Shown piece after piece: positions 5,028-56,600 of a stretch of DNA of 56,787 nt. The stretch is from positions 1 to 56,787 of the forward strand of contig JASGMG010000001.1 in the NCBI GenBank assembly GCA_030156575.1. The letters are read 5' to 3'. The notes under the pieces are model-generated. The model was not told where the DNA came from and did not search any database. It was given only the letters and a program-made list of their open reading frames with translations. The DNA is from Patescibacteria group bacterium (GTDB taxonomy: Bacteria; Patescibacteriota; Saccharimonadia; Saccharimonadales; Saccharimonadaceae). The translations under genes and the position numbers were made by a program. Position 1 is the stretch's first letter; each line of letters starts with the position of its first letter.

Positions 5028-6073
5028 ATTTCCTTTGGTGGTATTATGGATAACCCAGCAACTGTTATGTATCTTGATCGAAGTTGTCTAACAGGTTCTG
5101 GTAATTTGCCAAAATCTAGTTTTTGCCATGGACTGGCTACTCGGGCGGGCATTATTAGTTCGTTTGTAAAATATTCTCCTATACCAGGTACGTTACTACC
5201 ACTACCAACGACTAATAGTTGTTCTAGCTTACGGTCGTCACTTATACGTTCATTGTAATAACGTATAACCTTACGAGTTTCTGTAATTATTTGTTTCAAA
5301 CTTGGTTCTATAGCACCTTTAATTTTTGCTTGTCGAGGTCCAGCATTAAGACCATTTAATACTTTTAGTTGATGCGCATTTTCTAATGTGATTTCGAGCT
5401 TTTTCGCAATATCTAGAGTAAATGTGTTACCTCCAAGCGGAATACTGCTAGTTACACGGATTGCATTTCTATCAAGTATTGCAATATCGGTACTAGCTGG
5501 TCCAATATCTACAATAACGCTCGGTAGATTGCCGTCTTCAGTCTTTGTTAGTAGACGCGCAACAGCACTCATACTAGGCTCTACCAGGCTTACTCTTAGC
5601 CCCGCATCTTCAGCTGCACATATACATTTATCAATTATTGTTTTGGCTACTGCGCTCATTAGGATTGTTATTTCTTTTTTATTGCGCTCTACTATTTCAT
5701 AGTCAATATATAATGTTGAGGCTGGCAATGGTATGTACTGGTCTACTTCTAAACCAACTGCATCTTTTAGCTTTTTTTCAACAGAGATAGGTAAATTAAA
5801 TGTTCTAGAAAAACTTCGAGCTGTTGGGATGCTTATTGCAACGTGGTTACTTGGTAGTGAGCCAATTATCTTTTCTTTTATGAGCAGTTTTACATTATCT
5901 GCTAAATAAGTGCTGGTTCCCTCTAGTGATTCTTTCATTTTTTGTGGATTTAGATCCATCGATCCATAACCAAGAACTAACCATCTTTTATTGTCGATAG
6001 CCATAATTTTAATACCAGTACTACTGATATCAAGACCGATTATTTGTTTATCTGTATATATTAATTTCGTCAT
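5018..6073 (-). CDS. pilM: Type IV pilus assembly protein PilM (actin-like ATPase fold)
   Basis: 351 aa. 'IIGLDISSTGIKIMAI' and 'VIVDIGPASTDIAIL' are phosphate-binding motifs of the actin/Hsp70 fold. Operon context with pilN, pilO, pilC and pilB. Confidence 0.8.
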   Translation of the reverse strand: MTKLIYTDKQIIGLDISSTGIKIMAIDNKRWLVLGYGSMDLNPQKMKESLEGTSTYLADNVKLLIKEKIIGSLPSNHVAISIPTARSFSRTFNLPISVEKKLKDAVGLEVDQYIPLPASTLYIDYEIVERNKKEITILMSAVAKTIIDKCICAAEDAGLRVSLVEPSMSAVARLLTKTEDGNLPSVIVDIGPASTDIAILDRNAIRVTSSIPLGGNTFTLDIAKKLEITLENAHQLKVLNGLNAGPRQAKIKGAIEPSLKQIITETRKVIRYYNERISDDRKLEQLLVVGSGSNVPGIGEYFTNELIMPARVASPWQKLDFGKLPEPVRQLRSRYITVAGLSIIPPKEIWK

Positions 6074-6133
6074 TTATGCCCACTGATGTTTGCTAACTAT
6101 TATTATAACATGAGCGTATTGGTTTCATAGCTA

Positions 6134-7363
6134 TTATTTAATGTTTTGAGATAAACTAGCGATTGGCAACATAACACTGGCCGCGATCAAGCCAACCATG
6201 CCACCCATTATTACAATCATAATTGGTTCTATGATTGAACTTATACTTCCAATTGCAGTATCTACTTCTTCTTCATAAAAATCAGCCACCTTTACAAAGA
6301 CTTTTTCTGTTTGACCTGTTTCTTCGCCGACTAAAAGCATTTGAGATACAATAGGTGGAAATAGTGGATTAGCTTCAATAACAGAAGATAGCGATTTGCC
6401 GTTTTTCACTTCTATCTCTGCTTCTAGTAGAGCTTTTTCATAAACAGCGTTGCCAACAGCTCTCGATGTTACACTTAGGGTTTCTAATACAGCGACTCCA
6501 GCTTCTATTAATGCTGAGAATGTTCTTGCGAAATGCGCTACGGCAACTTTCATTACAATTACTCTTATGATCGGTATTTTCAGTAGTAAGCTATGAAATT
6601 GGAATTTGCCTCTCTCTGTTTTAATGTACCTTATAATTACATAAGTTACGCCAAAAAAAACTCCAATTATTATATACCAATAATTTATAATGATGCTACT
6701 AATTTTTAACATTACTAATGTTATTCCTGGCAGTTTAGCATCTGGTCCACCTAAGTCTGTTAATATCTTACCAATTTGTGGAATAACAAAAAGCATCAAT
6801 CCGAAAAAAGCTAATATTGTTATGGTTATTAGGACTATTGGGTAGGCCATAGAACTTCTAATCTTTTTTCGCATTGCCATGCTTTTTTCTTGTTGAATCG
6901 CTAGTCTTTTTAGAATATCATCTAGAATTCCAGCCGCTTCACCAGCGCGTACCATATTTACATACACATCGTTAAATGTGTTAGGGTATTTTGCCATAGC
7001 ATCTCCAAGGTTTGCTCCGGCTTCAACATCATGAATTATATCTACTAATATTTTTTTTAATGTTGGGCTCTCAGCAATATGTTCAGATAGGGCAGTTAGG
7101 GCTCGTAATATTGGCACACCTGCACTGACCATAGCACTTAATTGTCTAGTAAACATAACTAGTTGATCTGATTTTACTTTGTTCCCACCCAGCAAGCTTT
7201 TTAGATTAAAGCTTTTTGTCTTTTGTTTGGCTTCAGTTACACTAACTGGTCGTAGACCTTGTTTTATTAGCGCCTCAATTGCAGCTGCACGCGTTAATTG
7301 ATCAATTTCACTATTAATTGCTTTACCATCGTTATTGATTGCTATGTATGAGAATATTGGCAT
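6134..7363 (-). CDS. pilC: Type IV pilus platform protein PilC (T2SS F family)
   Basis: 409 aa. Duplicated T2SSF domains ('LVMFTRQLSAMVSAGVPILRAL' and 'VAHFARTFSALIEAGVAVLETL') with 3 TM segments. Adjacent to pilB. Confidence 0.85.
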   Translation of the reverse strand: MPIFSYIAINNDGKAINSEIDQLTRAAAIEALIKQGLRPVSVTEAKQKTKSFNLKSLLGGNKVKSDQLVMFTRQLSAMVSAGVPILRALTALSEHIAESPTLKKILVDIIHDVEAGANLGDAMAKYPNTFNDVYVNMVRAGEAAGILDDILKRLAIQQEKSMAMRKKIRSSMAYPIVLITITILAFFGLMLFVIPQIGKILTDLGGPDAKLPGITLVMLKISSIIINYWYIIIGVFFGVTYVIIRYIKTERGKFQFHSLLLKIPIIRVIVMKVAVAHFARTFSALIEAGVAVLETLSVTSRAVGNAVYEKALLEAEIEVKNGKSLSSVIEANPLFPPIVSQMLLVGEETGQTEKVFVKVADFYEEEVDTAIGSISSIIEPIMIVIMGGMVGLIAASVMLPIASLSQNIK

Positions 7364-7364
7364 A

Positions 7365-9146
7365 TTAGTTTTTAGTTACCCTAATTACTTCTTCTATGGT
7401 TGTTTCACCACGAAGTGCTTTTATAAGTCCATCGATTTGCATTTTTACCATTCCATCAATAACTGACTGTTCTTGTATTTGATTACTAGTAGCATTAGTT
7501 ACTATTAGCTTCTGTATTGAAATTGAATTAGTTAAAACCTCATATATGCCAACACGACCTTTATATCCATTTAATGTGCCATCTTTGTTGTCGTTAGGAT
7601 CGGCTTTCCACAATGTATTTATACCATTTTCATCAGTACTTAGTGGCGTATCACCTCCAACGCCTTCTGCGGCGGCTTGTTTTTCTAGTTGGTGGATGTA
7701 GCTAAAATGTTGGTCTGTTTTTAATCCAAATAGATCGATTATCATCTTTTTTTCTTCTTCACTCGGTGTATAACTTTTTCTGGTTTCTTTGTTTATTTTA
7801 CGGACGAGTCTTTGTCCAACAACTGCTCGTATAGTACTAGCTATTAAGAATGGTTCTATGCCCATATCAAGAAGTCGAGGTAGGCATGTTGCAGCATCGT
7901 TTGTGTGTAACGTGCTGAAAACTAAGTGACCAGTTAATGCAGATTGAACGCTTAAATCTGCGGTTTCACTGTCCCTGATCTCACCAATCATTATAATATT
8001 TGGGTCTTGACGCAATAATGCCCTTAACCCATTGGCGAATGTCATGCCCGCTTTAGAATTAGTTTGAGTTTGGTTAACGCCTGGAATCTTATATTCAACT
8101 GGATCTTCTATAGTTGATATATTTACGTTAGGTGTGTTAAGTATCGTTAAAATACTAAATAAGCTGGTAGACTTACCACTTCCAGTCGGCCCTGTTACCA
8201 ATATCATGCCATTCGCTTCTTTTAAAGCTTCTTTAATGTCTACTAGAGATTTCCCCCAATATCCTAGTGATTCGAGTGAAACTGCTTGATTTGATTCATC
8301 TAATATACGCATCACAACCTTTTCGCCATCAGATACTGGTAACGTACTAACACGTAATGCATATTGTTTACCGCCAACTTTTATTTTGAAACGTCCATCT
8401 TGAGGTATACGATGTTCGTCAATCTTTAAGTTGCTTAAGATTTTTATGCGACTAACTAGAGAATTCACTACGTTACGAGGTAATCGGTTTACTTCTTTTA
8501 AAACACCGTCTATTCGATATCGTATCTGAACAAAACCTTCGCGAGGTTCGATGTGAATATCGCTAGCATGCGAACGAATAGCATATTCTAGTAATAAATT
8601 TATAGTTTGGGCTATTGGCGAATTCTCAGCCACTTCTTGTTCACTAATTGGCTCATTTTCTGTGTCATCTGTGCGTTGAATGTCAATAACTTCGTTTAAC
8701 TCTTGATTAACATCACCTCGATAGGCTTCTAGAGCGGATATAATATTATCGTGTGGCGCAATATATACGATCGTATTAGTGCCGATTTGTTTTTCAATAA
8801 AGTTAACAGCCTGAACATCATCTGGATCATCCATGGCTAAATGAGAGGTGCCATTTTCGTCAATCTTAAATAAAATTGCATTGTATTGGCGTGCGATTCT
8901 TTCGGGGATCTTGTTTAGTACGTCAGATGGTATGTCTGATGAATTGATCTCTATGTATGGGATTTGTGTATAATCGGCAAATAATTTAGTTAATGTTTTA
9001 TCTTTGATTATTTGGTTTTGTAAGGCGACTTCTTGAAGTGAGCGATTCGAACTACCACTCTCTTTTTTAAGAGAGTTAATTTGCTCAGTAGTGGCTATTC
9101 CACTGCGTAGGAGCAACTTTTCCATCGTGGTGTCTGAAATACGCAT
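7365..9146 (-). CDS. pilB: Type IV pilus assembly ATPase PilB (GspE family)
   Basis: 593 aa. Walker A 'GPTGSGKST', Walker B/Asp box 'IIMIGEIRDSETA' and His box 'GHLVFSTLHTNDA', with an N-terminal GspE_N-like domain. Confidence 0.9.
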   Translation of the reverse strand: MRISDTTMEKLLLRSGIATTEQINSLKKESGSSNRSLQEVALQNQIIKDKTLTKLFADYTQIPYIEINSSDIPSDVLNKIPERIARQYNAILFKIDENGTSHLAMDDPDDVQAVNFIEKQIGTNTIVYIAPHDNIISALEAYRGDVNQELNEVIDIQRTDDTENEPISEQEVAENSPIAQTINLLLEYAIRSHASDIHIEPREGFVQIRYRIDGVLKEVNRLPRNVVNSLVSRIKILSNLKIDEHRIPQDGRFKIKVGGKQYALRVSTLPVSDGEKVVMRILDESNQAVSLESLGYWGKSLVDIKEALKEANGMILVTGPTGSGKSTSLFSILTILNTPNVNISTIEDPVEYKIPGVNQTQTNSKAGMTFANGLRALLRQDPNIIMIGEIRDSETADLSVQSALTGHLVFSTLHTNDAATCLPRLLDMGIEPFLIASTIRAVVGQRLVRKINKETRKSYTPSEEEKKMIIDLFGLKTDQHFSYIHQLEKQAAAEGVGGDTPLSTDENGINTLWKADPNDNKDGTLNGYKGRVGIYEVLTNSISIQKLIVTNATSNQIQEQSVIDGMVKMQIDGLIKALRGETTIEEVIRVTKN

Positions 9147-38673: not shown

Positions 38674-41007
38674 TTATTTAGACCATTGCCAATTTTCTAT
38701 TTCATCCATATCAACGCCAAATTCTTTAATATATTCAGTATTGGCTTCTATTTTCTGTTGATATCTTGTTGTAATCTCCAAAGCCTGTTCCGTAGCTATG
38801 CGACCAGATCTTGCCATATTATCAAATATCGCTATTACTAAATGGTAGCGACTAGTTTTGTTGCGAACATGCATATCAAATGGAGTTGTTGTACTTCCAC
38901 ATTCTATATAGCCTCGAACATCAAAGCGCTCTGCATTATCTACATAGTTAAATAGTATTGCTTTCAAAGTTTCTGGATAACCATGGAAATTACAGATAAC
39001 AGGTTTATCAGTAGTAAATTGTCGGTCAAATTCAGCTTCATTGATAAAGTTTTTACCTTGTCCAAACCCTCGGCTAGTAAGTGAGCTTACATTGACACAT
39101 CGAAGTCTGATGTTAGGCCATTCTTTTTTAGCAATATCGATTGCAGCAAGAACTTCTTTCGTTGGATAATCACCGATACCAGCGAGAACTACATCTGGGT
39201 TGTCGTCGCTTGCAAACTCCCAGGTCATAATACCAGTTTGTAATTGTTTACGTGCGAGTTCTGGTGTCAACCATCGTGGCTCGATGGTCTTTCCTGCAAC
39301 TACTATGTTGATCTTCTTAGTTGACTGCAATATTTTCTCAAGTACAACTAACGTACTATTGGCATCTGCTGGAAAATAGACATCCATATAATCACCGTGT
39401 CGACGTAAAGCGTCATCTATAAATCCAGGATTTTGGTGACTAAACCCGTTATGGTCTTGTCTCCAGCCAGAGCTGGTCAAAATATAATTGAGTGATGGAA
39501 AAGTTTCGCGCCATTCAAAATCAAATGAGTGCTTAAGAAATTTTGCATATTGGTCCATCATACTTACAACTACTTGTACAAAAGCTTCGTAACTTGCAAA
39601 GATTGAATGTCTACCGGTTAATGTATATCCTTGGGCTAGACCCTGTAGGTTATGTTCACTCAGCATCTCCATAACACGACCGTTGGGTGACATGTCTTTA
39701 TCCCAACTTTCAATTGGCCATACCCAAGCGCGAGAAGTTTCTTTAAATATAGCGTCTAGTTTGTTTGAATACGTTTCATCGGGTGACATAAATCGGAAAT
39801 TTTTATTTTCTTCGTTAAGCTTAAAGACTTCTTTTAAATACATGCCAGATTGAATCATACTGCTTGAGCCCAATGTGCCAGGTATAGTAGAATCTTCAGC
39901 AAAGTCTTCTAGTAACGGTAAATTTAATGGCTTGTAGACTGTTTCTCCACCATGTGCATGTGGTGTCATACCCATTCGTTGCTTGCGCTCTGGCACTATG
40001 TTTTTTACGAAATCACCAAATCCATTTTCGGCGTCAAATAACTCATCAAATCTGTATGATCTTAGCCATTCTTCTAATAATTTTAATTGCTCTGGGTCAG
40101 TTTTAGCTTCTGTTAATACAACTTGGTGAGATAAACAGTTGCCTTCGATTTTATTACCATTTAATTCTTTAACACCAGTCCAGCCTTTTAATGTACGCAT
40201 GATAATCATTGGCATTCGAGGTGAGACTATGTCTTGTGGGGCTTCTTTGATACTCCAGATAAGCTTATGGGCCCAATCCAGTGTTTCTTCCATTTGTCTA
40301 TCTAAATCATCTCCAGAGACAATACGAGGCTCGTACCCATAACCCCAAAACAGTGACATCAGTTCATCATCACTCATCCGACCAAATATAGTTGGAGCTG
40401 ATATTTTATATCCATTGAGATGCAATATTGGTAAAACTGTGCCATTGGTCTTTGGGTCAACTAATTTATTTAGATGCCAAGCTGCTGCCGCCGGACCAGT
40501 TTCAGCTTCGCCATCGCCAACTAGACATGCCACTATCATATTTGGATTATCAAGAGCAGCACCATAAGATGTCGAGAGAGAGTATCCTAATTCGCCACCT
40601 TCTAAAATAACACCAGGCGTGCCGGGGTTACTGTGGCTAGGAAAGCCATAAGGCCAGCTAAAGTTGCGACAAATATAGCTAATACCGTCATAATCTTGAG
40701 TTGCTTTAGGGTAAAATTCGCTTAAAGTACCTTCGATAAATAAGTTTGCTTGCAAAGCAGGGAAAGCATGTCCGGGGCCTAATACAAACATCATTTCTTG
40801 GCCATATTTTTTGATCAAGTTATTTAAATGTGAGTAAATAAGATTTACTCCAGGACCTGAGCCCCAATGCCCTAAAAGCCTAGATTTAATATCATCATGA
40901 GTTAGTGGTCTCTTTAGTAGAAAATTATCTTGCAGAAATATTTGCGCTGCAGTTAAATAGTTTGTTGCTCTTCTAAACTTTTCGAAATCTGTTGTTTTAT
41001 CATTCAT
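38674..41007 (-). CDS. xfp: Xylulose-5-phosphate/fructose-6-phosphate phosphoketolase
   Basis: 777 aa. 'RLLGHWGSGPG', 'EGGELGYSLS', 'GDGEAETGP', 'ILHLNGYKI' and 'QDHNGFSHQNPGF' are characteristic XFP blocks. Confidence 0.93.
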   Translation of the reverse strand: MNDKTTDFEKFRRATNYLTAAQIFLQDNFLLKRPLTHDDIKSRLLGHWGSGPGVNLIYSHLNNLIKKYGQEMMFVLGPGHAFPALQANLFIEGTLSEFYPKATQDYDGISYICRNFSWPYGFPSHSNPGTPGVILEGGELGYSLSTSYGAALDNPNMIVACLVGDGEAETGPAAAAWHLNKLVDPKTNGTVLPILHLNGYKISAPTIFGRMSDDELMSLFWGYGYEPRIVSGDDLDRQMEETLDWAHKLIWSIKEAPQDIVSPRMPMIIMRTLKGWTGVKELNGNKIEGNCLSHQVVLTEAKTDPEQLKLLEEWLRSYRFDELFDAENGFGDFVKNIVPERKQRMGMTPHAHGGETVYKPLNLPLLEDFAEDSTIPGTLGSSSMIQSGMYLKEVFKLNEENKNFRFMSPDETYSNKLDAIFKETSRAWVWPIESWDKDMSPNGRVMEMLSEHNLQGLAQGYTLTGRHSIFASYEAFVQVVVSMMDQYAKFLKHSFDFEWRETFPSLNYILTSSGWRQDHNGFSHQNPGFIDDALRRHGDYMDVYFPADANSTLVVLEKILQSTKKINIVVAGKTIEPRWLTPELARKQLQTGIMTWEFASDDNPDVVLAGIGDYPTKEVLAAIDIAKKEWPNIRLRCVNVSSLTSRGFGQGKNFINEAEFDRQFTTDKPVICNFHGYPETLKAILFNYVDNAERFDVRGYIECGSTTTPFDMHVRNKTSRYHLVIAIFDNMARSGRIATEQALEITTRYQQKIEANTEYIKEFGVDMDEIENWQWSK

Positions 41008-41905: not shown

Positions 41906-42504
41906 AAGAAATTATTTTCGCTACTGGTAATAAAGGTAAGGTATTTTCTTTGCAAAAGTATGCGAATAAGTTTGATCTTGATTTAGCCATAACTCAACAA
42001 TTTCTTGATCTTATAGAGCCACAGGCCGATACTTCATCTGAAGTTGCAAAGTCTAAGGCGCGACAGGCATATAAAGTATTTAATAAGCCAGTTTTAGCTG
42101 ACGATAGCTCTTTTCATATTTCGACTTTAGGAGGCTTCCCTGGGCCTTATATTAAATATATGATTACAACTCTTGGCATAAATGGAATATTATCTTTTAT
42201 GGAGGATAAATCTGATCGTAGCGCTTATTTTTTAAGCTCATTAGTACTTATTGATGAATATGGTAGGGATCATTTATTTGAAGACGAGCCTTATTGGGGT
42301 ACTATTGCGACAGAGATTGATGATTTTAAGTCTGAAAAGTCGTGGAGCGAGCTACATAAAATCTTTATTCCTAATGGTAGTGATAAAGTTTTAGCACGTA
42401 TGATAGAGTTTGAACGCGAGAAGGTCAACATAAGAACCAATTCCTATGAAAAATTATGTTTATGGCTCAAAGACAACCCACAAATGCTAAAAGATAGTTT
42501 ATAG
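41902..42504 (+). CDS. Non-canonical purine NTP pyrophosphatase (Ham1/RdgB family)
   Basis: 'IIFATGNKGK', 'EPQADT', 'VLADDSSFHISTLGGFPGPYIKY'. 4-nt overlap with folD. Confidence 0.8.
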   Translation: MKEIIFATGNKGKVFSLQKYANKFDLDLAITQQFLDLIEPQADTSSEVAKSKARQAYKVFNKPVLADDSSFHISTLGGFPGPYIKYMITTLGINGILSFMEDKSDRSAYFLSSLVLIDEYGRDHLFEDEPYWGTIATEIDDFKSEKSWSELHKIFIPNGSDKVLARMIEFEREKVNIRTNSYEKLCLWLKDNPQMLKDSL

Positions 42505-42867
42505 ATTTAAGGCTTCTTTAATTCGTTGAACAACTTGTCTTGGTGTTAAGTTGGCTTTTACTATATAACTATGTATTCCTAATGAACGAATTTCTTTAGG
42601 AGCTTCTTCTTCGCCTAGATTTGTTAAGATTATGACAGGAATATCCTTACCCCAGTTGTTTTTACGTATAATTTTAAGTACTTCAACTCCGTTCATCTCT
42701 GGCATCTGTAAGTCAAGCAAAATAATGTCTGGTAAAAAGGTCTCAACTAATTCAATTCCGTTTTTGCCATTTTTTGCTAATTGAACATCAAAACCGTCGG
42801 CTTCAAACTTCATTCTGTACATCTGGCTAATTACTTGGTCGTCTTCAATAATAGCTATCTTCGTCAT
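42499..42867 (-). CDS. Stand-alone response regulator receiver (CheY-like)
   Basis: 'KIAIIEDD', phospho-acceptor context 'DIILLDLQMPEMNG', 'PVIILTN' and 'YIVKA'. No output domain. ATG at 42867 chosen. Confidence 0.85.
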   Translation of the reverse strand: MTKIAIIEDDQVISQMYRMKFEADGFDVQLAKNGKNGIELVETFLPDIILLDLQMPEMNGVEVLKIIRKNNWGKDIPVIILTNLGEEEAPKEIRSLGIHSYIVKANLTPRQVVQRIKEALNL

Positions 42868-42965
42868 GAGCTTATAATACGGCATAAAACTCATACGTTC
42901 AAGTTTATGATATAATTACTGGTAATAATAAAATAAAATGATCCATTAAAACAGGGGATATTAGA

Positions 42966-43307
42966 ATGTTAGATCTAGCTCCGTCCATATGTAGACAACG
43001 TTTAGTCATTGAAGCCTACCCAAAAAAAGCAATTACCGATCAAGATATAAAGAAATATTTATCAGAATTATCTGTTGTTATTGATATGAAACAGCTTATT
43101 GAGCCAGTTACTCATAATTGTGAAAAGTTTGGTTGGGCTGGTTGGATACATTGGGAAACATCTGGTGCTCATTTTTATGCATGGGAGCGTCCAATTTTAT
43201 TTTATAGTGTAGATATTTATACATGCAAAGCGTTTGATCCTTTGGCCGCAGTTGAGTTTACTAAAAAGTTTTTTGATAGCGACAGTATAGAATACAAAGA
43301 GTTTTAA
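42966..43307 (+). CDS. Pyruvoyl-type S-adenosylmethionine decarboxylase-like protein (AdoMet_dc/SpeD-H family)
   Basis: 113 aa. 'GWAGWIHWETSGAHFYAWE....YSVDIYTCKAFDPLAAVEF' aligns by eye with the SpeD/SpeH core 'GVSGVVIISESHLxIHxxPE...xxIDVxTCGxxDPxxA'. Confidence 0.55.
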   Translation: MLDLAPSICRQRLVIEAYPKKAITDQDIKKYLSELSVVIDMKQLIEPVTHNCEKFGWAGWIHWETSGAHFYAWERPILFYSVDIYTCKAFDPLAAVEFTKKFFDSDSIEYKEF

Positions 43308-44128
43308 TGATGGAAACTCTAGGTAGTGATAGTTTTGAAAAAAAAGATTTAACCCCTAGTTATGAGCTATCACCGCGGAATGTCGAGCTTTTAATATATG
43401 ACTTGCTAGACAAAAATAAAGAACTTACACCAGAAAACTCTAGTGAAGTTATCATTAGAGTTGATGGTAATAGCGAATATGCAGATATTGCAAGGTATAT
43501 TGAAGAAACCGTATTTATGCGTGAGTTTGGTAATAGCCCACAAGAGATGGAACGAGAATATAACCCATACGAAAAATATAGTGATTTTTATATTGCTATA
43601 GATTGTGAAGCTAATAAACCAATAGCTGCTCTAAGAGTAATTAAGAATTCAGAAAATGGTCTAAAAACATTAAACGATGCCACAAAAGAGCCATTTAATG
43701 TTAATAGTAAAAATATAGAACAACACAATAAAGGCATGGAAGATCTCAACAAAGTATGGGATATTGGAACGGTGGCTAAAATGCCTGGATATACAAGGTC
43801 TTCAGCTACTGTTGAATTATACCGCGCTGTATATGTAGCTTCCCTTAATTCTAGTATTGAGGATTGGGTGACTATTATAGACGATGCTGTCCATAATATG
43901 ACGACAAAACACTTCGGTATACCATTTGAGCCTCTTGGAGATTCAGAACCTGGCCCATATCTAGGATCCGATAAAAGTCATGTTGTATGCGCACATGTAC
44001 CGGATTTTAGAGAAACTATGGGTGATCATATGAGCAAGGCTAAAGGACGCCTTGCTAATAAGATATTCGGGATTCTTGTAAATGGTGACAGTGATAATAG
44101 GATTATTCTTAGCCCAATAGACAATTAG
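43307..44128 (+). CDS. GNAT-fold N-acyltransferase-like protein (Acetyltransf_5 / OlsB / N-acyl amino acid synthase-like)
   Basis: 'IARYIEETVFMREFGNSPQEMEREYNPYEKYSDFYIAID...KPIAALRVI' and 'GTVAKMPGY...LYRAVYVASL...FGIPFEPLGDSEPGPYLGS' follow the pattern of N-acyl synthase-type GNAT domains. TAATG overlap with the upstream gene. Motif-level call only. Confidence 0.4.
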   Translation: MMETLGSDSFEKKDLTPSYELSPRNVELLIYDLLDKNKELTPENSSEVIIRVDGNSEYADIARYIEETVFMREFGNSPQEMEREYNPYEKYSDFYIAIDCEANKPIAALRVIKNSENGLKTLNDATKEPFNVNSKNIEQHNKGMEDLNKVWDIGTVAKMPGYTRSSATVELYRAVYVASLNSSIEDWVTIIDDAVHNMTTKHFGIPFEPLGDSEPGPYLGSDKSHVVCAHVPDFRETMGDHMSKAKGRLANKIFGILVNGDSDNRIILSPIDN

Positions 44129-44167
44129 ACTATAAAAAACATAATACTTAAGCTAAACTTGTTGTAT

Positions 44168-46309
44168 ATGGATATAATTATCTTTTTTGCATGTTTTATA
44201 AATTTACTCCTAGGGGCGTTTGTGTTATTGCATGATCCTAAGTCTATTCATTCTCGTTTATTTATGTTTATGAGTGTTTCTATTTGCATCTGGATAATAT
44301 CAAGTTACATTACTGACATGAGGATGTCTAGTATTGTCATTAATATTATATCTAATAGACTAGCTTATGTAAGCGGATATTTAGTTATATTAAGTGGAAC
44401 CATATTTACTTATTTCTTTCCAGTAAAGCGTAAAATTAGTCTAAAACGATTATTATTGTTTTCTGTATTTAATATTCTGGTCTTGTGTCTAGCGGCTTCA
44501 AAATTAGTATCTGGTTATGTGAATATTAATTCTTTGGGTAATTTAGAATTCTCTATTGGGCCTTTGTTGTGGTCTTATATAGTTGGTATTTTAGTCTTGA
44601 TTATTTTAATAATAAAGAACTTATTAAGACCATCTTTACATATAGATAAAAATAATAAAATACAGGCTCATCTTGTACTTTTATCTTTTTGTTTTGGAGC
44701 CTTGTCGGGGCTACTATTAAATGTTATTATCCCGATTTTAATTGGTAATTGGCATACCGCTCAATTTGGATCATTATCGACAATTGTTTTTATCAGTATA
44801 ATCGTTTATGCAATTACAAGACATGGGCTTTTTGATATTAGGTTGGCACTAGTTAGGACTTCTGCTTATGTGCTTTCGTTGAGTACTTTCATTGTTGTAT
44901 ATTATTTATTAGCTTATACTTTATCTATATTAATACTTGGTAGCGAAACTGCCTTCAATAAACAGAATGGACTAAGCATTATAATAGCTCTTGTATTGGC
45001 TTCGTTCTTTCAACCTGTTAAAAAATTGTTTGATCGCTTAACTAGTGCTGTTTTTTATAGAGACAATTACGATAGTGACATTTTCTTTTCTAATATTAAT
45101 AGGATAGCAACTTTAACAACAAATATTGGTGATCTACTAAAAAGCTCAACTAATGAAATTGCTGAAACTGTTAAAATAGAACAAGTATTCTTTGTCGTTT
45201 TAAGAGACGAAGGTGGATTTATATCAACAGGCACGTCTCATCATAGTAGATTACCTGCGTCTGACATAAAAGTTCTTGGTAATTATACTAGGAACAATGG
45301 AAACAGACTGTTAGATAGAAGGACGTTATCTGATGATGATAATATTTTTCGAAGGCTTATGATAAGTCACAAAATAGAGTTGGTATTACCGCTCGTTATA
45401 TCGGATAAGCTAATTGGGTATTTATGCCTAGGTGATAAAAAGAGCGGTAGGTTTACTTCGCGTGATATAAATGTTTTAAAAACTGCTTCAGATGAATTAG
45501 CTATCGCTATTCAGAATGCATTAGCTGTACAAGAAATACGTGAGCTAAACGAGACCTTGCAACAAAAAGTATCTAATGCTACTAAAGAGCTTCGTGCTAG
45601 TAACGCTATTTTGCGCCAATTGGATAAAAATAAGGATGAATTTGTGAGTATGGCTAGTCATCAGCTTCGAACACCACTAACGAGCGTTAAAGGCTATATC
45701 AGCATGGTTCTAGAGGGTGATGCTGGTAAAATATCAGAATCTCAACGAAATCTGTTAAGTGAAGCGTTTATAAGTAGTGAACGTATGGTTCGTTTGATTA
45801 ACGATTTTTTGAACGTGTCTAGACTACAAACTGGTAAATTTGTGATAGACAAACATCCAGTTGATTTATCAAAACTTGTGGAGCAGGAAATTGATAGCTT
45901 AAAATCTAATGCAACTGTTCGTAATATGAAATTTAATTATCGAAAACCTAAAGATTTTCCAATAATTAAAGTTGACGAAGATAAAATTCGCCAAGTTGTT
46001 ATGAATTTTGCAGATAATGCAATATATTATTCCCATGACGGTACCGCTATTGATATTAATTTAGTTGTGAAGGGTAACGAGGTTATATTTACAGTCAAAG
46101 ACACTGGGATAGGTGTTCCATCTAAAGAACAAGAGCAATTGTTTAGTAAGTTTTATCGCGCTAGCAATGCTCGGAAGCAACGTCCTGATGGTACCGGAGT
46201 TGGTTTATTTTTGGCAAAAAAGGTAGTGTCTGTACATGGCGGTAAGGTAATATTCAAATCAGTTGAAAACAAAGGCAGTACGTTTGGGTTTAGTTTGCCA
46301 ATTGAATAA
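44168..46309 (+). CDS. Sensor histidine kinase (multi-TM sensor, GAF-like, HisKA, HATPase_c)
   Basis: About 7-8 N-terminal TM helices, a central GAF-like region, H-box 'FVSMASHQLRTPLTSVKGY', N-box 'NFADNAIYYS', and G-boxes 'VKDTGIGV' and 'GTGVGL'. Confidence 0.85.
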   Translation: MDIIIFFACFINLLLGAFVLLHDPKSIHSRLFMFMSVSICIWIISSYITDMRMSSIVINIISNRLAYVSGYLVILSGTIFTYFFPVKRKISLKRLLLFSVFNILVLCLAASKLVSGYVNINSLGNLEFSIGPLLWSYIVGILVLIILIIKNLLRPSLHIDKNNKIQAHLVLLSFCFGALSGLLLNVIIPILIGNWHTAQFGSLSTIVFISIIVYAITRHGLFDIRLALVRTSAYVLSLSTFIVVYYLLAYTLSILILGSETAFNKQNGLSIIIALVLASFFQPVKKLFDRLTSAVFYRDNYDSDIFFSNINRIATLTTNIGDLLKSSTNEIAETVKIEQVFFVVLRDEGGFISTGTSHHSRLPASDIKVLGNYTRNNGNRLLDRRTLSDDDNIFRRLMISHKIELVLPLVISDKLIGYLCLGDKKSGRFTSRDINVLKTASDELAIAIQNALAVQEIRELNETLQQKVSNATKELRASNAILRQLDKNKDEFVSMASHQLRTPLTSVKGYISMVLEGDAGKISESQRNLLSEAFISSERMVRLINDFLNVSRLQTGKFVIDKHPVDLSKLVEQEIDSLKSNATVRNMKFNYRKPKDFPIIKVDEDKIRQVVMNFADNAIYYSHDGTAIDINLVVKGNEVIFTVKDTGIGVPSKEQEQLFSKFYRASNARKQRPDGTGVGLFLAKKVVSVHGGKVIFKSVENKGSTFGFSLPIE

Positions 46310-46505
46310 TTTCGATAATCATTATAATTATAAAGATTACAACGCCAGAGGTTATTAAGATTGGTTTAAGGATCTTTTTACGTTCAAACCACCATTGCCC
46401 AATTTTTGAACGATTAGTAGCTGATATTTTAGTGATAACTGGATGAGTCATTGCCGCATCAACGCCAGTATACGTTTTATTACGTTTTTTCTTATTCTTT
46501 GCCAT
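46290..46505 (-). CDS. Small tail-anchored membrane protein (hypothetical)
   Basis: 71 aa from the ATG at 46505. Lys-rich N-terminus (MAKNKKKRNK) and a C-terminal TM (PILITSGVVIFIIIMIIEII). A TATAAT hexamer lies 9 nt upstream of the ATG on the minus strand. The track's longer N-terminus would run through a terminator hairpin. Confidence 0.35.
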   Translation of the reverse strand: MAKNKKKRNKTYTGVDAAMTHPVITKISATNRSKIGQWWFERKKILKPILITSGVVIFIIIMIIEIIQLAN

Positions 46506-46520
46506 AGTAATTTTATTATA

Positions 46521-46553
46521 ACAAAATTGCCCCCGCTGTAATAGCGGGGGCAA
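46521..46553 (-). terminator. Rho-independent terminator downstream of the LPXTG protein gene
   Basis: 11-bp GC-rich stem TTGCCCCCGCT / AGCGGGGGCAA with a 5-nt loop, followed on the minus strand by TTTTGTT. Confidence 0.75.
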
Positions 46554-46600
46554 TTAGTTTGGTCTGAATCGCTTCAGAAAGAGGAGCGGTCAGACTCTGA

Positions 46601-48103
46601 TTAAAGTGCTCGGCGACTATTTATATAGTAGCCTAAACTTGTAATCAATGTACCTAATCCAATGACGGAAGCTAATACTGTAGCACCTGTCTTTGGAAGT
46701 TCGGTCGGAGTTGTTGGCTCTTCGCCAGTAATCTCAAAAGCGGCTTTACAACCAGTGCTTGTTGCTGTGGCATCTTTGCCGTCAGCTTCAACTGTAATAG
46801 TTGCTTGCACTGTATACTTACCAACAGTACTTTGATCATAATCAAAAGTCGTATCAGTACTTGTCTTAGTATCAATTATTTTGTCGTCTGCATCACGGAT
46901 AACATATGTAACACTTTTGAACGTTGCATTGTCAACCGAGTAAGCAAGCTTAAACCGAGTAGATGTCTTTGAAAGACGAATTATACTTAACGCGTCGCAT
47001 GTATAAGCAACGGTTGGAGCTTCACACTCTTTAGTAACGACAACGTTAGCAGTGTCTTCTTTGGCTCCGCCACTTGTTATTGCCTTGGCTGTGTTTATTA
47101 ATGTATTTGGTCCACAAGCTGGTAAAGCATCGTTATTAGGTATTTCGGCAGTAAATTTAATATAAGCATCACCTTCGGGCATATATCCACCGATTACTAT
47201 GCCACCAGCTGTGATTCCGTCAGCAACCTGTTTTGTGCCATCAGAGTTGTGTAGGTATGTGCTTCCTGCGACGTATTTAGCGCCAGCAGGTAGAGTGTCT
47301 TTTATAACAACGTCTTTTAGTTGTGTACCGCCAGTGTTTTTAAAGTAAATCTGGTAATCAACTTTGTCACCGGGTTTTACATTAACACTTTCTTTGAAGG
47401 TCTTATCGGTTGCGCTATTTGCGCGAACGGTTTTTTGAACGTCAAAACTTGCGGTTGTGGCTTTGACCTTAAATATGACAAGACCGTCGTACTTGTAACA
47501 TCCAGGGATTTTTCCATCTAACTTGTCGTATCCAAGTGTAGCGCCTGAGCTTACGACGGTGTCGGGTAGCGCAGTACCAGCAGTAAACACATTATTAGTA
47601 TAAGTTGCTGAACCTGCAACATAGGTCATATTAAAGTCTGAATCGCTACTAAAAACAGCTTGATCCCAGATTTTGTCTGGTTTAGCGTTGCTTGATGAAA
47701 TGTATCCATCGATTTGAATTCGCTTTGCAGTTTGCGTTGGAACGTTAAAGTTTGCAACAACATTTTCAGCAACTAAATTTAAATTAGCAGCTGCGTTGTT
47801 ATGTACGTACATACGAACGTAATATTCTTTGCCATTCTGAATTGTAATGTCGTCAGTCCAGCCGCCCTTGGCTGTATTGTCTGCATCTTTGATAGTTACA
47901 AAATTGCGCTCATCACCATAATTTGGATTATTAGTTATTGAGTTAAATGTAACGTGATCGGCTGGCACTTCTATTGTATAAGTTGGCCGTTCTGGTCCCC
48001 ATGCGAATAATACTGCTGGTACGATAACTGCGGTTGCAATCATTAGTAGGGCAGCGCTAGTGCGCTTGGGAGCTTTACGCACGAGTGATAATAGTTTTCT
48101 CAT
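46601..48103 (-). CDS. LPXTG-anchored cell-surface protein
   Basis: N-terminal signal/TM (SAALLMIATAVIVPAVLFAWG). Beta-rich repeats, including a DUF11-like 'KPGDKVDYQIYFKNTGGTQLKDVVIKDTLPAGAKYV' segment. C-terminal 'LPKTG', a hydrophobic stretch and 'SRRAL', which is a sortase sorting signal. GGAG RBS upstream. Confidence 0.8.
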   Translation of the reverse strand: MRKLLSLVRKAPKRTSAALLMIATAVIVPAVLFAWGPERPTYTIEVPADHVTFNSITNNPNYGDERNFVTIKDADNTAKGGWTDDITIQNGKEYYVRMYVHNNAAANLNLVAENVVANFNVPTQTAKRIQIDGYISSSNAKPDKIWDQAVFSSDSDFNMTYVAGSATYTNNVFTAGTALPDTVVSSGATLGYDKLDGKIPGCYKYDGLVIFKVKATTASFDVQKTVRANSATDKTFKESVNVKPGDKVDYQIYFKNTGGTQLKDVVIKDTLPAGAKYVAGSTYLHNSDGTKQVADGITAGGIVIGGYMPEGDAYIKFTAEIPNNDALPACGPNTLINTAKAITSGGAKEDTANVVVTKECEAPTVAYTCDALSIIRLSKTSTRFKLAYSVDNATFKSVTYVIRDADDKIIDTKTSTDTTFDYDQSTVGKYTVQATITVEADGKDATATSTGCKAAFEITGEEPTTPTELPKTGATVLASVIGLGTLITSLGYYINSRRAL

Positions 48104-53414: not shown

Positions 53415-56400
53415 ATGAATTTATTCGATGGCTTAAACTCGGCACAAATCGAAGCTGTGCAAACAACTTCTGGTCCACTTCTAATTCTGGCTGGAGCAGG
53501 TAGTGGTAAAACAAAGACATTAACACATAGAATCGCATACCTTATATCGCATGAGGTGATTTTTCCTAATGAAATTTTGGCTGTAACTTTTACTAATAAG
53601 GCGGCTCGTGAAATGCGTGATAGGTTGGGTGTTTTATTAGACCAAAATAGCAATAACCGTAATTTTATGCCTTGGATGGGGACTTTTCATGGTATTTGTG
53701 TAAGAATGCTCAGGCTTGACGGTGAGGCGATTGGAATCTCTAAAAATTTTGTTATTTATGATGAAGACGATAGGCAGGGATTGATTAAACAAGCTATGAA
53801 GCAGCTGTCAATCAGTGATGGAGAGATAAAAGCTAAAGCTGCTAGCGGTATAATATCGAGCTCTAAAAATGAGATGGTTAGCCCCGAGGATTACGAATCA
53901 ATTGCCCAATTACCTTATCAGAAAAACATTTCTAAAATATATAAGAAATATGAAGAACTTCGTAAGGCTGCAAAAGCACTTGATTTTGATGATTTATTGC
54001 TTGAAACTGTTCGTTTATTAAAGGATAAATCTGAAATTCGCAAAAAATGGCAAAAGAATTTCAAACATATCTTAATTGACGAATATCAGGATACTAACGC
54101 CGCTCAATATACGATTGTCAAATTATTAGTCAATGACCAACATAATATTTGTGTTGTTGGCGATGACTGGCAGTGTCTGGTTAAGGGGAGTCTTGTCGAG
54201 ACGCCTGTTGGGTTGAAAAAGATCGAAACTATAGAAAAAGGGGATATGGTTCGTTCGGCAAGTGGTTATGGATCTACCGGATATTTCAAGGTTCTAGATC
54301 GCAAGGAGTTCAATTTTAAAGAAGAAACGATAACCATTAAAACTGTTTCTGGAAGATCAATAACGTCTACTCCTAATCATTTATTTTTTGCTAAATGGGA
54401 TAAAACAACCGACTTATTTGTGTGTTTAATGTATTCACGAGTCAAGGGTTATAGAATTAGTATTCTAAAAGGTACAGAATTTGATGGCATGAAATTGAAA
54501 GTTCAAGCAAAACAGGAACAAGCAGATAGAACTTGGGTATTAAAGGTCTGCAGCGATCGACAAGAAGCGATGTATTATGAAGCGTTGTTTTCTTATAAAT
54601 ATGGTATACCGATGACGCCATTTAACACATCTAGTAATTTAACATCACATTTAAGCCAGTCCTATATTGATACTTTATATAAATCAGTTGACACAAAAGA
54701 GCGAGCAGAATCCTTAATGGGTGATTTTAAAATTATGTTTGATTATCCGCATTTCTTTTCGCAGGCAACTACCAGAGACTGTCTAAAACATGTTAACTTG
54801 AATGTTGTTTTGTTTGGTGATAAGCGTATTACAACTGCAAATCTATGGTCGGCTAGTAAATTATCTATCAATACAACAGATTCAAAGGATATGACTATTT
54901 TTGAGAATTTGGGCTATTCTGTCGAACCCGGTAGGGCAGGCACTCTTAAATCAGAGATTCATAACCTTGATTATGGAAAGATAGAGCAAGCTTTGCAAGA
55001 AATACAGTCAGTCACTGACAGTGATATGTTGTGTATACAAAAATATGGTTTTTTCACGAAGGATGATTCTTTTTTGTTTATGTCTGCTTCGCAAATACAT
55101 CCAGGTATGTTGCTGCCTGTTTTGGATGGTGATGAATTAATTCCGGATAAGGTAATAAGCGTTACAAAAGATGATTATAATGATAGTGTTTATGATTTAG
55201 ATATTGAAAAAGTACATAATTATATTGCAGACGGGGTAGCTGTTCATAACTCAATTTACTCATGGAGGGGTGCTGATTTTACTAACATTCTAAACTTTGA
55301 ACGAGATTTTAAAGGCACTAAAGTTATTAAATTAGAACAAAATTATCGTAGCACTGGAAATATTTTAGATGCCGCTAATAATGTAATAACTAAGAATGTT
55401 CAGCGTACTGATAAAAAGTTATGGACAGCTACTGGCCCTGGCAACCCTGTACAAGTACATTCGTTGTATGATGAAACAGAAGAAGCTAGTATGGTTGCCG
55501 AGCGGATTGCAACTCAGGTTAGAACAGGTGCTAGAAAGTATAAAGATTTTGCAATTTTATACCGTACCAATGCACAAAGTTATACTTTAGAACGCGCTTT
55601 CTTACGATTGCGAGTACCATATAAGATTGTTGGTGGTATTAGGTTTTATGATCGTAAAGAAATTAAAGACATTATTGCTTATTTGAGGTTGATTTATCAG
55701 CCACAAGATCGTATGAGTTTCAGTCGAATTGCCAATGTTCCAACTAGAGGTGTTGGCGCTATGAGTCTTGAGAAATTCTTAGTTTGGCAATCTGAAAGCG
55801 ATATGGATATTTTAACAGCTCTTAAGAATGTTGATCAGACTAGCACAATTACAACTAGGGCTAAGCTTGCTCTGTTTGATTTGGGTGAAAAATTACAAGA
55901 AGTTCATTCAATGGTCGAGACATCTAGTCCAACTGAATTAATTGAAAAGATTTTATTATTGACTAAATATAGAGACTTTATAATGGATGGTACCCCGCAA
56001 GCAGAAGAACGAGATGCTAACATTGGGTCATTATTATCTGATTCACAAAGTTTCTTGTCATTACCTGAGTTTCTAGAAGAGGTTGCTTTAATGTCGAGCG
56101 CTGATGTTAGTAATGATGATGAAAAGGTAACACTTATGACTTTACACGCCGCAAAAGGCCTTGAATTTCCTGTTGTATTTATTGTCGGCGTTGAAGAAGG
56201 AATATTACCTCATGCTAGGGTTTATGAAGCTGGCTTAGCTGAGTTAGAAGAAGAACGACGATTAGTATACGTTGGCATGACTCGTGCCTGTGAAGAGCTT
56301 TATATGACATGTGCTGAAAATCGTTTACAGTTTGGTCAACGTGGTTGTAATCCGATCTCACGATTTATTGCAGATATGGGTGATCAAATAACAATGTTTT

Positions 56401-56600
56401 CATCAGTAAGTCAATTCCAAACAGTTCATAAGCAGGAATTCTTTAGTGATGAGTTATTTAGTGTTGGTGAGAATGTTCGCTCATCGGCATTTGGCACCGG
56501 TCAAATAATCGAAGTTGATGGGTTAGCTGTGACAATTAAATTTGATGATGGATGCACTAAGAAGCTTAATGCTGAGTATGCTCATTTAGAGAAGATATAA
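53415..56600 (+). CDS. UvrD/PcrA-family ATP-dependent DNA helicase, interrupted by an intein
   Basis: Motif I 'ILAGAGSGKTKTLTHR', Ia 'ILAVTFTNKAAREM', II 'ILIDEYQDTN', split motif III 'VGDDWQ // SIYSWRGAD', 'LEQNYRS', 'ILYRTN', 'TLHAAKGLEFPVVF', 'RRLVYVGMTRA' and a C-terminal Tudor-like tail. 1061 aa including the 359-aa insert. Confidence 0.92.
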   Translation: MNLFDGLNSAQIEAVQTTSGPLLILAGAGSGKTKTLTHRIAYLISHEVIFPNEILAVTFTNKAAREMRDRLGVLLDQNSNNRNFMPWMGTFHGICVRMLRLDGEAIGISKNFVIYDEDDRQGLIKQAMKQLSISDGEIKAKAASGIISSSKNEMVSPEDYESIAQLPYQKNISKIYKKYEELRKAAKALDFDDLLLETVRLLKDKSEIRKKWQKNFKHILIDEYQDTNAAQYTIVKLLVNDQHNICVVGDDWQCLVKGSLVETPVGLKKIETIEKGDMVRSASGYGSTGYFKVLDRKEFNFKEETITIKTVSGRSITSTPNHLFFAKWDKTTDLFVCLMYSRVKGYRISILKGTEFDGMKLKVQAKQEQADRTWVLKVCSDRQEAMYYEALFSYKYGIPMTPFNTSSNLTSHLSQSYIDTLYKSVDTKERAESLMGDFKIMFDYPHFFSQATTRDCLKHVNLNVVLFGDKRITTANLWSASKLSINTTDSKDMTIFENLGYSVEPGRAGTLKSEIHNLDYGKIEQALQEIQSVTDSDMLCIQKYGFFTKDDSFLFMSASQIHPGMLLPVLDGDELIPDKVISVTKDDYNDSVYDLDIEKVHNYIADGVAVHNSIYSWRGADFTNILNFERDFKGTKVIKLEQNYRSTGNILDAANNVITKNVQRTDKKLWTATGPGNPVQVHSLYDETEEASMVAERIATQVRTGARKYKDFAILYRTNAQSYTLERAFLRLRVPYKIVGGIRFYDRKEIKDIIAYLRLIYQPQDRMSFSRIANVPTRGVGAMSLEKFLVWQSESDMDILTALKNVDQTSTITTRAKLALFDLGEKLQEVHSMVETSSPTELIEKILLLTKYRDFIMDGTPQAEERDANIGSLLSDSQSFLSLPEFLEEVALMSSADVSNDDEKVTLMTLHAAKGLEFPVVFIVGVEEGILPHARVYEAGLAELEEERRLVYVGMTRACEELYMTCAENRLQFGQRGCNPISRFIADMGDQITMFSSVSQFQTVHKQEFFSDELFSVGENVRSSAFGTGQIIEVDGLAVTIKFDDGCTKKLNAEYAHLEKI
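54174..55250 (+). mobile_element. Intein (359 aa) inserted in helicase motif III of UvrD/PcrA
   Basis: Starts with Cys ('CLVKGSLVETPVG', block A). Block B 'TSTPNHLFFA' (T-x-x-H). Blocks F/G 'VYDLDIEKVHNYIADGVAVHN' end in His-Asn, followed by +1 Ser. Removing the insert restores 'VGDDWQSIYSWRGA'. Confidence 0.85.

Follow-up and report, generated by a model that had tools for sequence, protein, structure and literature searches.

What would two small, overlapping enzyme genes be doing between the genes of a two-component system in a bacterium of this kind? Saccharibacteria live as obligate episymbionts on Actinobacteria and have very small genomes, and next to nothing is known of the means by which they perceive one another or their hosts. 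The question is raised by a stretch of 56,787 nucleotides from a Saccharimonadaceae assembly (GCA_030156575.1, contig JASGMG010000001.1, positions 1 to 56,787 of the forward strand), which we call the window. An initial annotation, made from the letters alone, had described four open reading frames (ORFs) here and proposed that the middle two make an N-acyl amine, either an aminolipid or a diffusible signal. All four ORFs are present at the positions then given: a 131-aa single-domain, receiver-only response regulator (42499..42894, minus strand), a 113-aa protein with the fold of S-adenosylmethionine decarboxylase (AdoMetDC; 42966..43307, plus), a 273-aa GNAT-fold protein (43307..44128, plus) and a sensor histidine kinase (44159..46309, plus). 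We propose, with about half of our confidence behind the proposal, that they constitute a self-contained small-molecule signalling cassette, in which a two-enzyme N-acyl-amine synthase would be inherited together with its sensor kinase and regulator.

Conservation and coupling of the enzyme pair

The two enzyme genes are translationally coupled, as originally described: the final A of the upstream TAA is also the first letter of the ATG of the 273-aa gene (TAATG; ...GAGTTTTAATGATGGAA...), a stop/start overlap that can be read directly in the sequence. For a synteny survey, 80 metagenome loci were fetched with the SpeD-like protein as query, their ORFs were called and scored with hidden Markov models (HMMs), and duplicates were removed; denominators are evaluable loci, and the loci were split by G+C content into a low-GC, Saccharibacteria-type group (<55%) and a high-GC group (>=55%). 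In 56 of 60 non-redundant metagenome loci (38/41 low-GC, 18/19 high-GC) the gene immediately after the SpeD-like one is GNAT-like. A kinase comes after the pair in all 26 low-GC loci and in 0 of 15 high-GC loci, an orthologue of the divergent response regulator is found in 32 of 35 and 0 of 18, and a GGDEF-EAL protein lies within 4 kb in 0 of 49 and 5 of 25, respectively. Relative to the window proteins, median identity is 68-69% (SpeD-like protein), 66% (regulator), 48% (kinase) and 35-36% (GNAT-like protein). Dozens of metagenome and genome loci that are independent of one another have the arrangement, far more than chance would allow. The closest homologues and the synteny also place the source organism among the Saccharibacteria. 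The four-gene block is conserved across many Saccharibacteria, where it occupies a fixed chromosomal position beside folD, which is usually upstream of it in the low-GC loci. The gene-neighbourhood check proposed with the initial annotation thus came out in favour of a conserved unit.

Gene fusions bring the two enzymes closer still. SpeD-like and GNAT-like domains occur as a single polypeptide in two independent cases, P0376 (locus L097, 588-1733) and P0308, the former on nine contigs from separate samples, and such natural fusions indicate that the two proteins act together physically. The 113-aa protein has thousands of close homologues, and the 273-aa family comprises 802 representatives at 50% identity (E<=1e-3). 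Homologues of the GNAT-like protein numbered 11 in a word-based search and 222 in a profile search, the few word-search matches reflecting its faster evolution; the genes of about 270 aa downstream of SpeD-like genes elsewhere are homologues of the 273-aa protein at 36-44% identity.

L091 (1240-5138) is a variant locus: after its SpeD-like gene, a convergent gene for a 301-aa protein takes the place of the GNAT-like gene. This protein matches LPG_synthase_C weakly (E=1.8e-4), the aminoacyl-lipid synthase fold of lipid aminoacylation. The kinase there is apparently in three pieces, a membrane protein of 280 aa, an ORF of 94 aa and a kinase core of 478 aa. At L090 (967-1326; HWESSGAHFYAW) a more divergent SpeD-like gene has no GNAT-like neighbour; a PilT-like ATPase fragment is encoded on one side of it and an ABC substrate-binding protein on the other. 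In P0345 the GNAT-like domain is fused to an N-terminal polytopic membrane domain.

Enzymes and sensor are co-inherited across phyla. In Mycobacterium sp. 155 (L010, 7649-12489) the enzyme-enzyme-kinase triad lies beside DDE transposase genes, and its kinase is 45% identical to that of the window across its full length (716 aa), sensor region included. At L095 (803-14202) the triad sits on a mobile-looking island with a Y1 transposase, CdiA_C toxin domains, Fic/VbhA and a serine recombinase (resolvase). These contexts suggest that the triad is horizontally mobile; the G+C content of the cassettes in L010 and L095 matches that of their respective flanks.

The position of the pair between a divergent receiver-only regulator and a co-directional kinase with a polytopic sensor and a GAF module was likewise borne out, by Pfam matches and by hydrophobic segments. 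All kinase domains score above their cut-offs (HisKA_7TM, 36.0 bits; GAF_2, 31.2; GAF, 26.9; HisKA, 62.1; HATPase_c, 89.5), giving a polytopic seven-transmembrane (7TM) sensor, a cytoplasmic GAF domain and a kinase core. About 8-9 hydrophobic segments lie within the first 290 residues, the H-box SHQLRTPL can be seen in the translation, and the start is probably the ATG at 44168 and not the TTG at 44159. The regulator matches Response_reg over residues 13-125 (84.4 bits) and has no output domain. With HisKA and HATPase_c in the kinase and a receiver domain in its partner, the two make up a two-component system.

In other high-GC loci the kinase gives way to different ligand-sensing signalling or regulatory proteins. 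Polytopic-membrane GGDEF-EAL proteins are encoded convergently with the pair in three high-GC loci (L076, L078 and L084) and between the two enzyme genes in two others (L062 and L088), and downstream of the fused enzyme P0376 a PAS-PAS-GGDEF-EAL protein of 1162 aa is encoded. Further partners are a SARP/BTAD-ATPase regulator (L055), a LysR regulator (L023) and, in some loci, a LuxR-type two-component pair; in Cryobacterium fucosi and Nocardia salmonicida the pair adjoins other two-component genes. At L001 (9133-10837; also L002 and L003) genes for a bona fide Autoind_synth protein (PF00765, 31.3 bits) and a ThiF-like protein come after the pair; before it stand those for a LuxR-type regulator and two kinases, with a TIR-TPR protein upstream. 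The type of partner thus differs by locus, which indicates that the output module varies, and most of the loci have a ligand-sensing signalling protein. A sensor domain shared by the kinase and the GGDEF-EAL partners was considered and rejected, none being detected by BLASTP or hhalign.

Folds and retained residues of the two enzymes

The smaller protein had been assigned to the pyruvoyl-decarboxylase family, and the assignment holds. It matches Pfam AdoMet_dc (PF02675) over residues 24-112 with 40.9 bits against a cut-off of 25, and its AlphaFold2 (AF2) model (pLDDT 95.1) has the prokaryotic AdoMetDC fold, so that we describe it as a class 1b SpeD-like protein and a putative pyruvoyl enzyme or enzyme subunit. 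Foldseek ranks Thermotoga maritima AdoMetDC first (1tmi/1vr7/1tlu; TM 0.79, root-mean-square deviation (rmsd) 2.2 Å) and Aquifex AdoMetDC next; across the best set (1tmi, 1vr7, 1tlu and 2iii) TM is 0.74-0.79 and rmsd 2.2-2.7 Å.

Residue equivalences were derived by aligning the family profile to the T. maritima AdoMetDC sequence, itself verified against PDB 1TLU. S66 of the 113-aa protein corresponds to S63, the pyruvoyl precursor, C87 to C83 and W73 to W70. S66 and C87 are invariant across 32 homologues, and an invariant E16 falls on T. maritima E11 when the profile alignment is extended manually, by eye. The same 32 homologues share the motif GWAGWIHWETSGAHFYAW...SVDIYTCK without change, and the block GWAGWIHWETSGAHFYAWE.P.LF.SVDIYTCK is unchanged from Saccharibacteria to Mycobacterium. 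S63, H68 and C83 are essential for processing and catalysis in T. maritima AdoMetDC (PMC10407285); with S66 and C87 kept and His68 exchanged for tyrosine, two of these three residues are retained and one is replaced. Two invariant histidines, His69 and His62, lie close to Ser66 and might substitute for the missing His68 equivalent.

Some databases name homologues of this protein 'S-adenosylmethionine decarboxylase'. Against the NCBIfam equivalog TIGR03330 (SAM_DCase_Bsu), however, the 113-aa protein scores 20.3 bits, below the cut-off of 75.65, and searches of PDB chains with its sequence and with the family profile gave no meaningful match and retrieved no PDB SpeD. The family is therefore far from canonical SpeD. 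Assignment as an ordinary SpeD was rejected on the TIGR03330 score, the histidine-to-tyrosine change and the gene context.

The GNAT pattern that had been noted in the 273-aa protein is weak at the level of sequence and clear in the predicted structure. Its sole Pfam family match is Acetyltransf_5 (PF13444), at 15.9 bits below the cut-off of 22.4, and a TIGR03694 match is also sub-threshold (E=3.5e-4). The best PF13444 score among distant homologues, 21.4 bits in the fusion homologue P0376, still falls below 22.4; PF00765 gives no match for the 273-aa protein at E<=1 and E=0.07 in P0376. Of the HMM searches proposed with the initial annotation, that for PF02675 thus gave a match above its cut-off and those for the two acyltransferase families did not; taken together, we read the computational checks suggested there as favourable to it. 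The proposed structure prediction with Foldseek gave the expected fold for each protein, AdoMetDC and LuxI/FeeM-like GNAT, and it is on this that the placement of both enzymes depends, since PDB sequence searches gave nothing meaningful.

The AF2 model of the 273-aa protein (pLDDT 93.5, pTM 0.90) finds its best PDB matches in acyl-homoserine lactone (AHL) synthases, the coenzyme A (CoA)-dependent BjaI (E 5.5e-8 to 1.6e-7) and LasI (3.8e-7), followed by RpaI, MesI and TofI. Chains of the N-acyl amino acid synthase FeeM (2g0b) align with TMt 0.72-0.75, rmsd 3.5-3.9 Å and E 2.4e-6 to 4e-5. The protein is about 70 residues longer than LuxI, with an extra N-terminal helix and extra C-terminal helices in the model, and no membrane segment is read from its ORF translation. 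Going by the model, it is a member of the GNAT superfamily in a separate, unnamed family whose shape is nearest to LuxI and FeeM, and we treat it as a putative N-acyltransferase. Between the GNAT-like family and the one PF00765-type protein of L001, hhalign detected no similarity.

A candidate N-acyl-amine signal and its rivals

The interpretation offered with the initial annotation is supported in part, strongly so for the architecture of the cassette and the functional linkage of its genes; the Mycobacterium triad, the fusions and the GGDEF-EAL partners go further than that annotation did. From these we infer the following scheme. The 113-aa and 273-aa proteins would form one two-subunit synthase. 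The smaller would acquire its pyruvoyl group, probably by self-cleavage at Thr65-Ser66, and would supply a decarboxylated primary amine, drawn from an amino acid or, as in its ancestors, from S-adenosylmethionine (SAM); the larger would N-acylate that amine. The product, which would be an N-acyl amine or a small molecule close to one, would be perceived by the co-inherited 7TM-GAF kinase, which would phosphorylate the divergently encoded receiver-only regulator. The cytoplasmic GAF/PAS domains of the sensors are as plausible a ligand site as their membrane domains, and the product may act between cells or inside the cell.

A number of observations weigh against this scheme. The residue of the 113-aa protein at the T. 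maritima His68 position is an invariant tyrosine, Y71, and T65 stands at the position of E62, giving a Thr-Ser in place of a Glu-Ser dipeptide; with these two changes, the protein could be non-catalytic. The acyl donor is unclear because Saccharibacteria, to our knowledge, lack fatty-acid synthesis. The 273-aa protein exceeds no Pfam threshold and has no sequence-level PDB match, whether searched as a single sequence or as a family profile, and its fold matches also take in generic GNATs, among them PaiA and SpeG, which are polyamine acetyltransferases. Between the kinase and the GGDEF-EAL proteins, the membrane domains have no homology detectable in the BLASTP and hhalign searches. Regulators beside biosynthetic genes, moreover, often just regulate them, and adjacency is no proof that the product is the ligand.

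The alignment of the 273-aa family to LuxI, made with a small set of LuxI-family sequences verified from the PDB, cuts both ways. The hhalign match is weak (probability 30%, E 5e-4), although colinear over 213 columns. We take the conserved SAM- and acyl-site residues of LuxI to be R24, F28, W34, D45, D48, R70, E101, S103 and R104. In this weak alignment F28, D48, R70 and E101 fall on invariant F70, E89, R110 and D152; R24, W34, D45, S103 and R104 fall on E66, N76, G/N86, G154 and T155. If R104 and R24 contact the substrate carboxylate in LuxI, as we presume, their exchange for threonine and glutamate would fit an acceptor without a carboxylate, a speculation that depends on the weak alignment.

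A bolder version of the scheme, possible but doubtful, would make the product a previously unknown class of signal. An AdoMetDC-derived enzyme would yield a decarboxylated amine from SAM or an amino acid, a LuxI/FeeM-like enzyme would N-acylate or cyclise it, and Saccharibacteria would use it for density or host sensing through the 7TM-GAF kinase. As Actinobacteria, the phylum of known Saccharibacteria hosts, carry horizontally shared copies, such a signal could mediate episymbiont-host cross-talk.

The same genes could instead serve the cell envelope. Their product would then be an N-acylated amine lipid or another surface modification, by analogy with OlsB-type enzymes, structural in role and not a signal, and the kinase and regulator would sense envelope stress and merely control expression. 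That the one, weak Pfam match of the 273-aa protein is to PF13444, a family that we take to include OlsB and FeeM, fits such a role, as do the polytopic membrane domain fused to its homologue P0345, the small membrane protein and LPXTG-type surface protein that are conserved neighbours in Saccharibacteria (described below), and the weak LPG_synthase_C-like gene, of a lipid-aminoacylation fold, that takes the place of the GNAT-like gene in L091. We nonetheless consider an aminolipid unlikely. The partner varies by lineage yet stays ligand-sensing (7TM-GAF kinase, membrane GGDEF-EAL, PAS-GGDEF-EAL or SARP), and the triad moves between phyla as a unit, behaviour more usual for synthase-receptor modules; the loci inspected have neither a second, OlsA-like acyltransferase nor a lipid gene as a conserved neighbour, and the 273-aa protein is without a membrane segment.

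What divides the signal-synthase scheme from a second alternative is the state of the active site. The AdoMetDC-fold protein might be a non-catalytic subunit that binds a ligand, or scaffolds or activates an acyltransferase which alone does the chemistry. The AdoMetDC prozyme of trypanosomatids and the AdoMetDC-like N-terminal domain of spermine synthase offer parallels, and both the spermine synthase N-domain and the Trypanosoma brucei prozyme complex are among the fold matches of the 113-aa protein. The tyrosine at the His68 position and the Thr-Ser cleavage site would follow naturally, the fusions indicate a physical complex, and a median identity of 68-69%, against 35-36% for its partner, fits a protein under many contact constraints. 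The invariance of Ser66, Cys87 and Glu16 across Saccharibacteria and Actinobacteria is hard to explain for a dead scaffold, however, and two invariant histidines (62 and 69) flank Ser66. With the catalytic residues kept to this extent, we regard a purely structural role as quite unlikely.

A third alternative is ordinary polyamine metabolism, in which a SpeD-type or neofunctionalised arginine/ornithine decarboxylase would act with a SpeG/PaiA-like polyamine N-acetyltransferase to set polyamine levels. The above-threshold PF02675 match, the database labels and the presence of PaiA and SpeG among the fold matches of the 273-aa protein speak for it, and SpeD has widely been neofunctionalised into arginine/ornithine decarboxylases, the candidate phyla radiation included (PMC10407285). 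Characterised SpeD derivatives, though, cluster with speE, speY, hss or carboxyspermidine genes (PMC10407285), and none of these is found here or in the 15 related loci inspected. The absence of a nearby spermidine synthase or other polyamine gene, already remarked in the initial annotation, was borne out among 27 scanned ORFs of >=120 aa, which cover about 10 kb on each side (the scan left out the other 22 window ORFs of this size); nor do those 15 loci have speE or another polyamine gene in their neighbourhoods. The equivalog score far under its cut-off, the failure of the family profile to find any PDB SpeD, and the changes of His68 to Tyr and of Glu-Ser to Thr-Ser all tell against this explanation, as does the partner enzyme: its best folds are LuxI and FeeM and not SpeG, and it is about 100 residues longer than SpeG/PaiA. 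Constant linkage to a sensor is, in addition, foreign to polyamine operons, and we judge this account improbable.

A GNAT-type toxin-antitoxin or anti-phage defence pair that stands beside the two-component system by happenstance is barely credible and was rejected: a small upstream gene does overlap the GNAT gene, as in TacAT-like modules, and some carriers have the pair on mobile islands near TIR, Fic, CdiA_C or ThiF/JAB genes, but neither enzyme has a PADLOC match, the pair is absent from the viral-contig and plasmid collections searched, the small protein has an enzyme fold, retained catalytic residues and 60-85% identity, unlike antitoxins, the position beside folD in Saccharibacteria is fixed and chromosomal, and the 273-aa protein is, by our reckoning, about 100 residues longer than known GNAT toxins.

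Known systems and the wider neighbourhood

In its logic the block resembles CqsA/CqsS, with different enzymes and a different sensor. As in Vibrio CqsA/CqsS, Legionella LqsA/LqsS/LqsR and Vibrio harveyi LuxM/LuxN, biosynthetic genes stand beside a polytopic sensor kinase and a regulator, and synthase genes and sensor are co-inherited as a unit. Those cassettes use a small amphipathic signal; the corresponding signal here is a putative one. At least one of its enzymes is, by predicted fold, related to the SAM-using autoinducer synthases. Unlike CqsA, which depends on pyridoxal phosphate (PLP), and unlike LuxM, the synthase proposed here would have two parts, AdoMetDC-fold and LuxI/FeeM-like GNAT, unrelated to either; unlike CqsS and LuxN, the kinase combines HisKA_7TM with a cytoplasmic GAF domain, the regulator is receiver-only and the sensor in other lineages is a GGDEF-EAL protein.

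Each enzyme also differs from its closest structural relatives. LuxI-type AHL synthases (LasI, BjaI, RpaI, TofI and EsaI) are the best structural matches of the 273-aa protein, but PF00765 is unmatched, which places the protein outside the LuxI family, and it is paired with a kinase or a GGDEF-EAL protein, not with LuxR, and is obligately coupled to the AdoMetDC-fold protein; among the window neighbours, a Pfam scan found no LuxR-type AHL receptor (Autoind_bind). Compared with FeeM, other N-acyl amino acid synthases and OlsB, FeeM is the best-covered fold match and PF13444 stays sub-threshold; unlike FeeM and OlsB, the protein has no adjacent acyl carrier protein or acyl-activating gene, and its presumed acceptor would be the product of a dedicated decarboxylase-like partner and not, as for FeeM, a free amino acid. 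The 113-aa protein has in common with class 1b SpeD and its derivatives SpeDA and SpeDC (PMC10407285) the fold, size, PF02675 match and equivalents of the pyruvoyl serine, cysteine and glutamate; it differs from them in the tyrosine for His68, the Thr-Ser dipeptide, the LuxI/FeeM-like neighbour and the lack of clustering with speE, speY, hss or CASDH/CASDC. The survey of SpeD derivatives mentions neither Saccharibacteria nor GNAT/acetyltransferase proteins nor histidine kinases (PMC10407285).

The nearest precedent is that of Bernard et al. 2020, who found PF00765-type LuxI homologues adjoining kinases in a few candidate-phyla-radiation genomes, two of them Saccharibacteria, and proposed complete quorum-sensing systems (PMC7567580). 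Their homologues, 36 in 2,503 genomes, pass PF00765 (for example, 38.5 bits), and the word 'decarboxylase' is absent from the main text (PMC7567580). The 273-aa family, unlike these homologues (PMC7567580), has no PF00765 match and is far commoner in Saccharibacteria; the kind that they detected may be represented by the PF00765-type gene downstream of the pair in L001. Full-text literature searches found no published description of the enzyme pair or of the cassette; the initial annotation likewise knew of no such system described from an ultra-reduced, episymbiont-type genome.

A compact, almost invariably syntenic block is thus common to Saccharibacteria, Mycobacterium, Nocardia and Cryobacterium. 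Comprising two enzymes, a sensor kinase and a regulator, fixed beside folD in Saccharibacteria and shared with those Actinobacteria, it is a concrete and testable candidate for a chemical communication system. If the scheme is right, the AdoMetDC fold would gain a new role beyond polyamine synthesis, and the LuxI/FeeM acyltransferases a new branch. Some carriers can be cultured, and with genes of this small size routine heterologous expression and liquid chromatography-mass spectrometry (LC-MS) could identify the product.

The divergent intergenic region between the regulator and the enzyme pair (42895..42965) is A+T-rich and 71 bp long, as read from the sequence. A Shine-Dalgarno-like AGGGGA lies 8 nt 5' of the ATG of the 113-aa gene, and promoter-like consensus matches occur on both strands (plus, 42907-42934; minus, 42902-42874). 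The region is a plausible place for promoters, the number of promoter-like matches not exceeding that in shuffled sequence.

Downstream of the kinase gene, and on the opposite strand, stand the two conserved neighbours mentioned above; whether either belongs to the system is uncertain. The first (46290..46553, minus) encodes a small membrane protein, probably of 71 aa starting at MAKNKKK..., with one C-terminal hydrophobic segment, and a gene of 71-73 aa occupies the equivalent position in L004, L006, L007 and L096. The second (46601..48103, minus) encodes a DUF11/CLIPPER-repeat surface protein (DUF11, 33.2 bits; a weak Gram_pos_anchor (LPXTG) match), with a homologue at the equivalent position in L004, L005, L007 and L096. 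Between these two genes, at 46525-46555, lies a perfect G+C-rich hairpin of 13-14 bp (AATTGCCCCCGC...GCGGGGGCAATT) that scores as terminator-like on both strands.

Other genes nearby encode MurB, BacA, a CYTH protein, two alpha/beta hydrolases, phosphoketolase, FolD, Ham1, pyruvate kinase, TIM and UvrD, together with the DUF11/LPXTG surface protein; RecA/RecX, type IV pilus genes and MurT/GatD are more distant in the window. The phosphoketolase gene (38674-41007, minus) adjoins folD, and the type IV pilus set (4467-9146, minus) comprises PilM, PilC and a probable PilB. Phosphoketolase, a type IV pilus set and MurT/GatD are typical Saccharibacteria content. Near the far end of the window, a 1061-aa UvrD/PcrA-type helicase (53415-56600, plus) carries an intein inside its helicase domain, with Intein_splicing and Hint matches between residues ~253 and 612.

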